A stretch of 64,000 nt of DNA from Escherichia coli. Its GTDB lineage: Bacteria > Pseudomonadota > Gammaproteobacteria > Enterobacterales > Enterobacteriaceae. Below, piece after piece: positions 49,721 through 52,085 of the stretch; the stretch's first letter is position 1; every line of letters starts with the position of its first letter. Position numbers and translations under genes: made by a program. The notes under the pieces were generated by a model. It was not told where the DNA came from, searched no databases, and saw only the letters and a list, made by a program, of their open reading frames with translations. The DNA lies in NCBI RefSeq assembly GCF_017348835.2, contig NZ_CP071375.1; one strand, written 5' to 3'.

Positions 49721-50704
49721 CTACATCAACTCTGTTTCCAGTATATTCCGCAGACTATCAACATTTTCATCAATGTATTCCAGCGTCGATGTGATGCTGA
49801 CGTGCCCTAACAATTTCTTCACCACATACAGGTTACGTTCCGGTGACTTCATCATGTGCGTTGCCACCGTGTGCCGGAATCGATGCGGGGATATCGTAAA
49901 CTTACACTCTCGGGACAAACGCTTGAAGAACGCCCGTAGCGGGTATTCGTTCATCACCTCAGGGTATTTTTTCTTTCTGACCAGGTCGAACCATCCCACG
50001 TTAAATAGTTGGTCATCCAGCTCCATGCCAACTTCGCCTGCTCTGAGAACCAGTAACTCCAGCGACGGATACAGCGCCGAAACAATCGGAACGCGATGCT
50101 CCCGATGGTTTTTAGCCCCTTCAATATTCAAATCAATCCACTGTTCCTCAAGATTGATATCGCCGAGCCGGATATGCAGGAGCTGGTTTTGCCGGATAGC
50201 CGTATAGCGAAAAACATTCATTACCGTCAGCCAGAACCACACCGGGCGTAGTGCATTTCTGCGACCATTGAACATGCTGCTGTTCCCTTTCCTTCCCTCA
50301 GTTTCCAGATGCCGCTCCATCAGACGGTACATCGCATCCATTTGCGTCTGCGTCAGCGTCTTCTTCTTTTTCGTTCCGGGACGTACCACCGCGCCGTTAA
50401 ATGGATTCTCAGCCTGTGGTAATAATCCCTGCTTAATACCAAAATTGAACAGCGCCCTCATATGGGCAACTTTGTTATTCCACGTCCGGGTGGCACAGTT
50501 TTGGTCATTCAGTACCCGATGCCGCCATTTCAGCACCGTAAGATGATCGATATTTGCAGGGTTATGCGGTGTAAAGCCTTCAAACGAGCGAACCACTTTC
50601 TGGTAACTCCACTCAGTCGCTGGTCGTAATGATTTGCTGTAAAAGTAGTGTTCAGTTAACGTCCCAAATGTACAAACATTCATAAGAATATCCTTATATA
50701 ACAA
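49721..50704 (-). CDS. Tyrosine-type site-specific integrase
   Basis: 327-aa ORF with C-terminal HRFRHT ... LLGHVSITSTLEY motifs typical of tyrosine recombinases; adjacent to the tRNA 3' end. Confidence 0.8.
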   Translation of the reverse strand: MLYKDILMNVCTFGTLTEHYFYSKSLRPATEWSYQKVVRSFEGFTPHNPANIDHLTVLKWRHRVLNDQNCATRTWNNKVAHMRALFNFGIKQGLLPQAENPFNGAVVRPGTKKKKTLTQTQMDAMYRLMERHLETEGRKGNSSMFNGRRNALRPVWFWLTVMNVFRYTAIRQNQLLHIRLGDINLEEQWIDLNIEGAKNHREHRVPIVSALYPSLELLVLRAGEVGMELDDQLFNVGWFDLVRKKKYPEVMNEYPLRAFFKRLSRECKFTISPHRFRHTVATHMMKSPERNLYVVKKLLGHVSITSTLEYIDENVDSLRNILETELM

Positions 50705-52085
50705 TCAATAACGGGTTATCCGTTGAATTGTTATCACTGCCGTACACTTTACTGGCAAGTACCAGATAGCCGCTCAGTTTTTGGAAGCGCCCTTCCCGCT
50801 GTTCATTCTGATACAGCTGACAGGTATACATCGTGCCATTGTCCTGCCGGTGATGACCCAGCCGCTCAAATGCTTTCTGAAGCCGGGCCTTATCCTCTCC
50901 CGGTGCATTCGTCTCTGTCATATACTGGTGAAAAATCCCTGGCGCACGCAGAAACACGTAACCAGCGACCAGATGAATCCGCCCGTCAGGTTTGTTCGGA
51001 ATCAGACTTCCTGAGCGGCATCCTGTAACCAGCCATTGCCAGAATGCCTCTCCGGGATCGTTCAACTCGGCGGATAACGTGATTTCTCCGGTTTCTGCTT
51101 CATCAGCGCTAGCGAAACCCATCATTGCCAGCAACGCATCAGTATCATCCGGCCCTTCCTGCTCATCCGAGAATATCGGCTCTGCATCCGACACAGGAGC
51201 AGGTTCCGCTACCGGAAGGATTTCCTCTTCGGAATACGACACAACCAGCCCCGGCGCATCATCAGCTAATCCGGACAGCAACGTATCACCCTGCAATGAT
51301 TCATCCTGAACTGGAATAATTATCGCCGGAACAGCCGGTTGCTCGCCTTCCGGTGCGCCAGCAGTGAGGCGAATAGCTTCAGACACAATGGCATTGACCA
51401 CGCCCGACTGTGCCCGAAAGCCGGTCAGGTACGTTGACAGGGTCTTAATAGCTTCCGGCCAGTTACTCAACCAGTTAATCGCTTCCGGAGGGATAATCTT
51501 CCACGCCAGCATTGCGCCAAAACTTTGCAACCGTTCCGGAGACTGTTCCGGCGCAAAGCGAAAGCGATAAGATTCTGGAGGCGCATCCGGTAACGGAAAC
51601 CAGCGTTTACCGTTCTCCAGCTCGACGTGGAGATGACAAAGATATTCAAGCGAAGACAGCATTGCCGCATAGACAACCACCGCATTCCAGGCCGCGCTTT
51701 GCGCCGCCTGTTCTTCTGACGGTGCGCCAACCGGTAACATGTAGCTTTTCGACAACCGCGCCGCATACGACACAGTTTCCAGCATATAGTCAGCCATACC
51801 TCCGGGACGGGCATATGGCCCACTTTCCGTAAGAGGAAATTGCTGCATCAGCGTCACACAATGCTCCAGTGGAGCAAGGTAATACTGTCGATACATATCT
51901 TTTGGCAGGGACGAATAATCCCAGAGTGATTGCAGCCATTGTTGACGGCGCGTTGTCGCCAGCAGTTCTCTGCCGGGCATAGGCCGGAAGTAGCCTGGAG
52001 GCAAAGAAGGTTTTATCGCCTCAACTATCGGAGGGGCATCCGGGCGTGAACGCCCCGGACGAAGAAGAGATTTCAGATTCAACAT
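50694..52085 (-). CDS. Hypothetical island protein, translationally coupled to the integrase
   Basis: 463-aa ORF; stop overlaps integrase start by 11 nt; acidic Pro/Glu/Asp-rich central segment; no catalytic motif recognised. Confidence 0.5.
   Translation of the reverse strand: MLNLKSLLRPGRSRPDAPPIVEAIKPSLPPGYFRPMPGRELLATTRRQQWLQSLWDYSSLPKDMYRQYYLAPLEHCVTLMQQFPLTESGPYARPGGMADYMLETVSYAARLSKSYMLPVGAPSEEQAAQSAAWNAVVVYAAMLSSLEYLCHLHVELENGKRWFPLPDAPPESYRFRFAPEQSPERLQSFGAMLAWKIIPPEAINWLSNWPEAIKTLSTYLTGFRAQSGVVNAIVSEAIRLTAGAPEGEQPAVPAIIIPVQDESLQGDTLLSGLADDAPGLVVSYSEEEILPVAEPAPVSDAEPIFSDEQEGPDDTDALLAMMGFASADEAETGEITLSAELNDPGEAFWQWLVTGCRSGSLIPNKPDGRIHLVAGYVFLRAPGIFHQYMTETNAPGEDKARLQKAFERLGHHRQDNGTMYTCQLYQNEQREGRFQKLSGYLVLASKVYGSDNNSTDNPLLIVI

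Follow-up and report, generated by a model that had tools for sequence, protein, structure and literature searches.

What does a large protein encoded immediately upstream of a tyrosine recombinase gene contribute to the element that carries them both? The question is raised by positions 50694-52085 (minus strand) of a 64,000-nucleotide stretch of Escherichia coli DNA (contig NZ_CP071375.1 of assembly GCF_017348835.2; the whole stretch is referred to below as the window). A first-pass annotation made from the letters alone had described there a 463-aa open reading frame (ORF) with an acidic, proline-rich centre and no assignable motif, had considered so large a partner of an integrase unusual, and had proposed a mobilisation accessory factor, a replication accessory factor or a regulator of the recombinase. 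The ORF proved to be real, with the length and coordinates given. The gene is traI of an integrating conjugative element (ICE) of the SPI-7/PFGI-1 type (MPF-G type IV secretion class) inserted in a tRNA-Phe gene, pheV, and the first of the three guesses was essentially right, the product being the TraI (MOBH-family) component of that element. Its family and its placement beside an integrase are already known from the literature, and the RefSeq label of the product ('TraI domain-containing protein', WP_089553637.1) is correct; this label comes from the chromosome of E. coli PE164 (NZ_CP114128.1), to which window positions 49400-53400 are 100% identical. How a relaxase homologue without catalytic residues serves such ICEs is a real question, though not a new one. 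We argue that the motif-less TraI is probably a non-catalytic DNA-processing (relaxosome) component rather than the nicking enzyme, with nicking left to a second protein, MOB_M, a reading to which we give a probability of roughly 0.6.

The absence of any assignable motif did not hold. TraI matches Pfam TraI_2 (PF07514) over aa 31-239 (E = 7.5e-34, 117.6 bits, cut-off 23.9) and TraI_2_C (PF07515) over aa 345-460 (E = 1.6e-19, 70.6 bits, cut-off 27.3), and it clears the cut-off of NCBIfam TIGR03760 ('integrating conjugative element relaxase, PFGI-1 class') with 249.9 bits versus 161.4 over profile positions 1-213 of 218. Membership in the MOBH relaxase superfamily, as defined by Pfam TraI_2 and TIGR03760, is thus found for the N-domain, and the disordered middle followed by TraI_2_C agrees with it. 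The C-domain matches PDB 2IPQ, the C-terminal domain of STY4665 from SPI-7 of Salmonella Typhi. The acidic, proline-rich centre had been correctly noted: the 101 residues between aa 242 and 342 include 24 Asp/Glu, 10 Pro and no Lys/Arg. It is accounted for by the MOBH layout described by Heilers et al. 2019, in which TraI_2 and TraI_2_C are separated by a disordered middle of variable length (PMC6736028). The AlphaFold predicted local distance difference test (pLDDT) exceeds 90 at residues 30-243, is mostly 86-95 at residues 344-463 and falls below 50 at residues 244-336, and the models predict an HD fold without its ligands in the N-domain and a winged helix in the C-domain. Within the otherwise fast-evolving linker, the motif DDTDALLAMMGF (aa ~313-324, window 51114-51149) is conserved and predicted to form a lone helix; strings like it ('D-x-LL-x-x-LG') are recognisable in two canonical MobH relaxases, both from Pseudomonas. 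This motif is possibly a docking motif.

TraI shares with canonical MOBH relaxases, such as the MOBH2 protein TraI of the gonococcal element GGI or the proteins of PGAP family NF041494 (e.g., those of the Pseudomonas aeruginosa pKLC102/PAPI-1 type), the order TraI_2, disordered middle and TraI_2_C and a conserved Tyr. Its N-domain is 30-35% identical to that of Pseudomonas MobH relaxases. Unlike them, it is 463 aa rather than 600-850 aa long and lacks the S-E-x-HHH motif, H117, the HD..K motif, H215 and D267. We aligned TraI with five plasmid proteins named 'MobH family relaxase' by PGAP. Where these references read FPASESHHHAYPGGMLDH, LLHDIGK and QADQASVA, TraI reads FPLTESGPYARPGGMADY, MLSSL-E and EAIRLTAG; the motif positions compared are those of gonococcal TraI H106, H107, H108, H117, H161, D162, K165, H215 and D267. 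The alternative 3H motif (S-E-x-H-H-H) is replaced by T-E-S-G-P-Y and H117 by Y100, the HD motif by S144 and S145, H215 by L186 and D267 by I238, and the position of K165 falls on a gap or on E147/Y148, depending on the alignment. Only E104 and the equivalent of Y201 (Y173) remain, and the relaxase domain is about 100 residues shorter than in the MobH references. TraI scores 123.2 bits against NF041494 ('MobH family relaxase'; cut-off 200) and covers only profile positions 3-217 of 340. Gonococcal TraI cannot cleave oriT in vitro without its 3H and HD motifs, and it depends on D162 and D267 to bind Mn2+; Y201 is dispensable for cleavage (PMC6736028).

Is this loss an accident of one decaying copy? 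Among 110 full-length homologues (70-99.8% identity), H106 is replaced by G and H117 by Y in all 110, D267 by I or V in 109, and the Y201 equivalent is kept throughout. The ratio of nonsynonymous to synonymous substitution rates (dN/dS) reaches 0.4-1.0 in the linker but only 0.08-0.11 in the N-domain and 0.07-0.15 in the C-domain, which indicates strong purifying selection on the latter two. A search of 1.84 billion cluster representatives returned 733 matches at E <= 1e-3, and the motif states of the 95 full-length representatives are bimodal, with the complete invariant ligand set in 32 and no more than two of the six ligands in 57. Since the substitutions are nearly fixed, the dN/dS of the domains is low and the motif states are bimodal, the motif loss is not recent decay.

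The combination of TraI_2 homology, absence of both the 3H and the HD motif, and kinship with 2IPQ and 3KQ5 places TraI, by its sequence, in the known motif-less 'MOBH3' clade, a class that goes back to Garcillan-Barcia 2009, as cited in PMC6736028, whose authors consider that MOBH3 proteins probably have 'an alternative function'. The second structure of this group, a Coxiella burnetii hypothetical protein (PDB 3KQ5), is only ~15% identical to TraI, has 393 aa and does not have the long acidic linker. The TraI proteins of SPI-7-family ICEs, namely STY4665 of SPI-7, Sb0117 of ICESb1 and ECA0613 of Pectobacterium HAI2, are relatives within the clade. STY4665 is only about 35% identical to our protein in the C-domain, and for this reason we regard the latter as part of a separate enterobacterial sub-branch, whose 110 members share at least 70% identity. 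A cluster look-up intended to place ECA0613 and STY4665 on the branches of the census returned only Yersinia, Serratia, Proteus and Enterobacter names.

Which protein, then, nicks in these ICEs? Neither the ICE of E. coli LF82 nor the gene table of pSGI4, the circular form of Salmonella SGI-4, contains an annotated relaxase other than the motif-less TraI. A recent preprint describes tyrosine-recombinase-like 'MOB_M' relaxases (prototypes TcpM, MobK and MpsA) that had been systematically missed and were sometimes annotated as integrases; it reports that they are restricted to MPF-G ICEs and relaxase-only mobilisable islands ('iMOBs') and that SGI-4 has one (bioRxiv 10.64898/2026.01.13.699239). 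The preprint's MOB_M seed WP_033567157.1 is the 'integrase domain-containing protein' of pSGI4, and LF82 encodes an extra 'integrase domain-containing protein' (Pfam Integrase_1 and Phage_int_SAM_2) that is 63% identical to it over its full length. In Citrobacter, Phytobacter, Chimaeribacter and Proteus, the strand that carries traI also encodes a homologue, a few kb upstream. Among plasmids, a MOB_M homologue occurs in 9 of 11 records whose TraI is not named MobH (TraI-domain type) and in none of the 14 canonical MobH records listed (Fisher p = 2.7e-5). The specific pairing of motif-less TraI with MOB_M is a testable lead.

The only MOBH-type relaxase-like gene of the complete ICEs (that of LF82 and of the conjugative SGI-4) is thus motif-less while MOB_M is present, which argues that TraI is probably a non-catalytic partner. 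In the mechanism we favour, TraI would descend from an HD relaxase and persist, without catalysis, as part of the relaxosome. Its winged helix, and perhaps also the dead HD domain, would bind DNA of the element; the linker helix DDTDALLAMMGF would dock to TraD or another transfer partner; and the strand would be cleaved by MOB_M, encoded a few kb upstream in intact relatives. Co-expression of traI and int would tie DNA processing to excision and integration. The TcpK/TcpM relaxosome of Clostridium perfringens pCW3 offers a functional analogy only: TcpK, a stand-alone protein of 100 aa, is 4% identical to TraI with no detectable sequence similarity, and the winged helix is a very common fold, so the likeness is a hypothesis and does not amount to membership. 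In a more specific form, which we hold tentatively and place somewhat below even odds, MOBH3 TraI would have given up catalysis once its ICE lineage had gained MOB_M and would persist as a conserved pseudo-enzyme, an adaptor handing the MOB_M relaxosome to TraD, with a dead HD domain, an acidic linker carrying the docking helix and a winged helix recognising the element's DNA as its working parts.

Alternatively, TraI may be a true relaxase that nicks oriT through an unconventional active site (e.g., Y173, Y100, D99, E103, H151 or K160), in which case MOB_M would be accessory or would serve a second origin. Much of what has been presented can be turned in that direction: TIGR03760, whose cut-off TraI exceeds, is named for an ICE relaxase; TraI is the sole MOBH-type product in LF82 and in the conjugative SGI-4; the equivalent of Y201 is invariant; the N-domain is strongly constrained; and traI genes of the SPI-7 family bear mutational marks in Table 2 of PMC3864950. 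We nonetheless consider this unlikely. All of the residues essential for cleavage in vitro or for Mn2+ binding are replaced, the conserved tyrosine corresponds to one that gonococcal TraI does not need for cleavage, the missing part of the relaxase domain and the 'alternative function' expected of MOBH3 proteins point the same way, and the second candidate, MOB_M, co-occurs specifically with the motif-less type.

Several points nevertheless weigh against a non-catalytic TraI accompanied by a nicking MOB_M. Gonococcal HD and 3H mutants still secreted DNA in vivo (PMC6736028), so that loss of these motifs need not abolish function, a result that equally favours the true-relaxase alternative. The traI gene of ICESb1 (Sb0117) is among those with a mutational mark in PMC3864950, and if this mark denotes 'essential for conjugation', it would fit an accessory role as well as a catalytic one. 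The plasmid count takes PGAP names as a proxy for motif state, which was verified directly for 8 of the 25 plasmids, and it drew on 60 of 67 MOB_M matches. Finally, the assignment of MOB_M depends on the computational profile of the preprint and on three characterised prototypes (bioRxiv 10.64898/2026.01.13.699239) and is accordingly a putative one.

The neighbourhood of the gene bears on a different possibility, the recombinase regulator of the first-pass annotation. traI is the penultimate gene of the ICE and int the last: traI lies directly upstream of int on the same strand, at the tRNA-proximal end, within direct repeats of the tRNA 3' end. Far from being unusual, this arrangement constitutes the standard 'Integration' module of ICEHin1056 (p1056.62/.63), ICESb1 (Sb0117/0118) and PAPI-1 (PA14_60130/60140) (PMC3864950), and in HAI2 the putative relaxase ECA0613 adjoins the integrase ECA0614 at attR. 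Our synteny survey was small (six loci from an alignment-based homologue search plus added Yersinia, Proteus and Enterobacter loci). It revealed the order traI, int, tRNA-Phe also in Klebsiella, Citrobacter, Phytobacter, Rosenbergiella and Chimaeribacter, while in Yersinia and Enterobacter traI followed by int occupies the same pair of sites, marked by pheU- and pheV-adjacent genes; all intact chromosomal loci of enterobacteria that were surveyed show the arrangement. In P. aeruginosa, too, the integrase is directly downstream. In E. coli itself, the traI module is present in about 12 of 5,426 complete genomes. In LF82, hyp74, hyp289 (two conserved genes discussed below), traI and int make up the tRNA-Phe (pheU) end of an ICE that is complete at ~48 kb and has 49-nt direct repeats at its borders; this ICE also encodes ParA, DnaB-PI, ParB, TopoIII, TraD, an MPF-G type IV secretion system (T4SS), TraG and ArdC. 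NRG857c, whose ICE was studied by Wong et al. 2025, carries the same traI module as LF82 at the same identity.

The tight and widely conserved position directly ahead of int would suit an integrase partner, a large factor resembling a recombination directionality factor (RDF) that sets the frequency of excision. No RDF is identifiable in SGI-4 (PMC6543542), and the title of Vanga et al. 2015 states that mobilisation of HAI2 'involves the putative relaxase ECA0613'. Such a role appears improbable to us: on an MPF-G plasmid of Pantoea and an IncF plasmid of E. coli, family members lie beside UvrD-like helicase genes and have no integrase as a neighbour; the ORF coupled to int in Proteus is a different one; and an excision phenotype of ECA0613 could be a polar effect on the downstream int. 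RDFs and excisionases are small (usually <150 aa), basic, DNA-bending proteins with an Xis/AlpA-type helix-turn-helix. TraI, acidic and 463 aa long, gave no Xis-, AlpA- or HTH_17-type match in Pfam or NCBIfam, and its architecture and clear homology are those of HD-domain relaxases. The proposed regulator of the recombinase thus runs into the refuting conditions that the annotation itself had named, occurrence of the family without integrases and clear homology to an enzyme, and is not borne out, and a non-catalytic relaxosome component remains our preferred reading.

The coupling of traI to int had been deduced from an overlap of the traI stop with the int start. This overlap exists (11 nt) only if int begins at TTG 50704, the start given by a longest-ORF listing; PGAP starts the gene at ATG 50683, 10 nt after the traI stop (...ATA TAA GGA TAT TCT T ATG). 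The ATG is backed by eight loci, and the TTG is probably not the start: it is absent in Chimaeribacter (TraI 56% identical), where the traI stop lies 1 nt before the ATG. From these comparisons int most likely starts at ATG 50683. What survives of the original claim is the co-expression of the two genes, a reasonable inference from their spacing though not from a true overlap. In five enterobacterial genera other than E. coli the spacing measures 10-18 nt (18 nt in the Yersinia branch and 13 nt in the Enterobacter branch), and in Chimaeribacter 1 nt; at the P. aeruginosa pKLC102/PAPI-1-type locus the relaxase gene and int overlap by ATGA. The tight spacing is thus conserved across enterobacterial genera, with Proteus as the case in which a 153-aa ORF intervenes and itself, in place of traI, overlaps int. 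A promoter and terminator scan found nothing convincing between traI and int, with fewer promoter-like sites than expected by chance, which is consistent with an operon without being evidence for one. Judging from gene arrangement, the two genes very probably form one transcription unit, and termination-reinitiation coupling is plausible. The downstream gene is a genuine tyrosine recombinase gene (Pfam Phage_integrase PF00589, 62.5 bits, cut-off 27.1; the H-x-x-R ... Y signature appears as HRFR at aa 267-270 and a C-terminal LEY), its product being 99.7% identical to the LF82 integrase.

Unlike the complete ICEs of the SPI-7 family, the element around traI is a decayed remnant of 9.3 kb, whose layout we obtained by mapping the window onto the LF82 ICE (Table 1). 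It is flanked by att repeats, starts at the tRNA gene 212 nt beyond the end of int, and retains int and traI intact without T4SS, the coupling protein TraD or MOB_M. The full equipment of an ICE (MPF-G T4SS, TraD and ParA/DnaB/ParB/TopB), present in the 96%-identical LF82 element, is missing from the window; the element is a remnant and not a functional ICE. A deletion of 35.9 kb removed T4SS, traD, topB, parB and dnaB and left an ORF in which the P-loop N-terminus of ParA (aa 12-51) is fused to the middle of TraG_N (profile positions 199-377). The coding sequence that PGAP places at this scar (57765-58661) differs in frame and extent from that of the ORF list.

Table 1. Features of the pheV-inserted ICE remnant and of its traI gene (window coordinates).
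Feature	Coordinates	Strand	Remarks
tRNA-Phe (pheV), integration target	49433..49508	+	3' 49 nt (49460-49508) are the proximal att repeat
LF82-matching block	49385-53560		tRNA, int, traI, hyp289, hyp74
ICE integrase, tyrosine recombinase, 320 aa from ATG	49721..50683	-	alternative TTG start at 50704 unsupported
traI-int junction	50681..50696	-	TAA inside AAGGA Shine-Dalgarno (50695-50691), 7-nt spacer, int ATG 50683-50681
traI, 463 aa, MOBH-family relaxase homologue (TIGR03760, 'MOBH3' motif-less clade)	50694..52085	-	stop TAA 50696-50694
TraI_2_C C-terminal domain, aa 343-463	50697..51059	-	winged-helix fold, PDB 2IPQ family
acidic proline-rich disordered linker, aa 242-342	51060..51362	-	includes conserved helix DDTDALLAMMGF
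TraI_2 N-terminal domain, aa 30-241	51363..51998	-	HD-superfamily fold, every metal ligand substituted, Y173 retained
hyp289, conserved gene upstream of traI	52181..53050	-	37%-identical homologue beside mobH in P. aeruginosa
hyp74, small conserved gene travelling with hyp289	53060..53284	-	
IS3 element	53561-54862		replaces about 5 kb of ICE
MOB_M first 34 codons, ~1 kb non-coding DNA, cold-shock-domain gene, two small ORFs	54863-57016		
putative MOB_M relaxase gene remnant, codons 1-34	54867..54968	-	cut off by IS3-associated deletion
~1 kb non-coding DNA upstream of MOB_M remnant, candidate oriT region	54969..55992		97% identical to LF82
IS200	57017-57720		
mid-traG joined to 5' end of parA	57721-58809		
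chimeric parA'-'traG ORF	57974..58693	-	scar of 35.9-kb deletion
distal att repeat, 48 nt of tRNA-Phe 3' end, far end of remnant	58717..58764	+	BLAST vs LF82

The non-coding DNA upstream of the MOB_M remnant is a candidate for oriT. It shares blocks with SGI-4 at 55073-55272 (76% over 204 nt) and 55385-55505 (71% over 128 nt) and holds a perfect 13-nt inverted repeat (55457-55469 and 55490-55502). A copy of a ~125-bp repeat also lies in this region (55647-55774), with 80-82%-identical copies at two other sites of the LF82 ICE (4468400-4468528 and 4494670-4494794).

In such surroundings, traI could itself have no function, being left over in a dead ICE and decaying towards a pseudogene. The T4SS, traD and topB went with the 35.9 kb, MOB_M is lost and IS200 is present; the distal att repeat carries a single-base deletion (CCGGGCACCA to CCGG-CACCA) relative to the tRNA-Phe 3' end and to the perfect 49-nt repeat of LF82, which might impair excision. 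Decay has also struck relatives: the Rosenbergiella nectarea traI has a premature stop at codon 365, and in an Atlantibacter sp. a deletion fuses codon ~154 of traI to the last ~90 codons of int. Against this, the present copy spans the full length uninterrupted by frameshift or stop, and its product is 95% identical to that of LF82 (int, as noted, still more so); moreover, the att repeats at either end and the candidate oriT region are preserved, which would allow mobilisation in trans. We regard a functionless traI as very improbable. The gene appears to be mosaic: compared to LF82, synonymous divergence is 0 in the first 29 codons, 0.32 in the N-domain and 0.02-0.03 in the linker and C-domain, a pattern that suggests a recombination tract inside traI.

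For this locus little is at stake, the element around traI being dead. The same type of ICE, in contrast, carries the Vi capsule (SPI-7), copper, silver and arsenic resistance in pandemic monophasic Salmonella (SGI-4) and coronafacic acid in Pectobacterium (HAI2), and the T4SS of the NRG857c ICE, an element that agrees with that of LF82 over the module compared, is used for biofilm formation by Crohn's-associated E. coli. Predicting or blocking the transfer of these ICEs requires the identity of the oriT nickase and the role of the conserved 'dead' TraI. Should the pseudo-enzyme form of our proposal be true, the SPI-7 family, SGI-4 and the LF82 ICE would illustrate the replacement of a relaxase with the old one kept as a scaffold, software typing by 'MOBH' would name the wrong protein as the nickase, and an intact relative could supply in trans what the remnant, which keeps its att repeats, int, traI and candidate oriT, needs for mobilisation.

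A more distant motif-less branch (~30% identity) includes the TraI proteins of an E. coli IncF plasmid, pSGI4 and a Pantoea plasmid, and in all of them a gene for a UvrD-like helicase precedes traI. The two genes overlap by 4 or 8 nt in pSGI4 and the IncF plasmid and are separated by 51 nt in the Pantoea plasmid; the pair looks like a split 'relaxase-helicase' arrangement. The gene order of pSGI4 is UvrD-like helicase, motif-less TraI, integrase, attP and ParA. MOB-suite finds no relaxase in either pSGI4 or the Pantoea plasmid, both of which it types as 'non-mobilizable', although SGI-4 conjugates at 8.9e-5 per donor (PMC7716197).

A hairpin (-26 kcal/mol, z = -5.8) is predicted at 52078-52123 in the sense of the minus strand, its 3' arm holding the traI start codon. 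It could be a translational control element or an inverted repeat acting at the DNA level. Across six loci we found no compensatory pairs and several broken ones; the ~45 nt upstream of traI are kept at all loci, even beside a different upstream gene.

Neither hyp289 nor hyp74 matched anything in Pfam, NCBIfam, PHROGs, PADLOC or PDB. In a pKLC102-like element of P. aeruginosa, homologues of the two (37-40% identity) stand next to the canonical mobH but point the other way, and they are absent upstream of traI in the Citrobacter, Phytobacter and Chimaeribacter loci. We rejected the idea that they encode a clade-specific substitute nuclease on account of these three loci and of the P. aeruginosa homologue standing beside a motif-bearing MobH. 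Within their sensitivity, PADLOC and PHROGs rule out a role in defence.

Just outside the distal att repeat starts a gene of 8.9 kb with a TcdA/TcdB-glycosyltransferase domain (DUF3491 match), which occupies 59032-63999 on the minus strand and continues past the window. Because it lies outside the repeat, we assign it to a separate island in tandem at pheV. In PE164, the region beyond the window (38693-43952 of its locus) contains IS1 and end genes of a CP4-type island, followed by tRNA-Ile, mug and rpoD. These last three appear to lie in inverted orientation relative to E. coli K-12, which suggests a ~100-kb inversion between the pheV- and ileX-associated islands in PE164.

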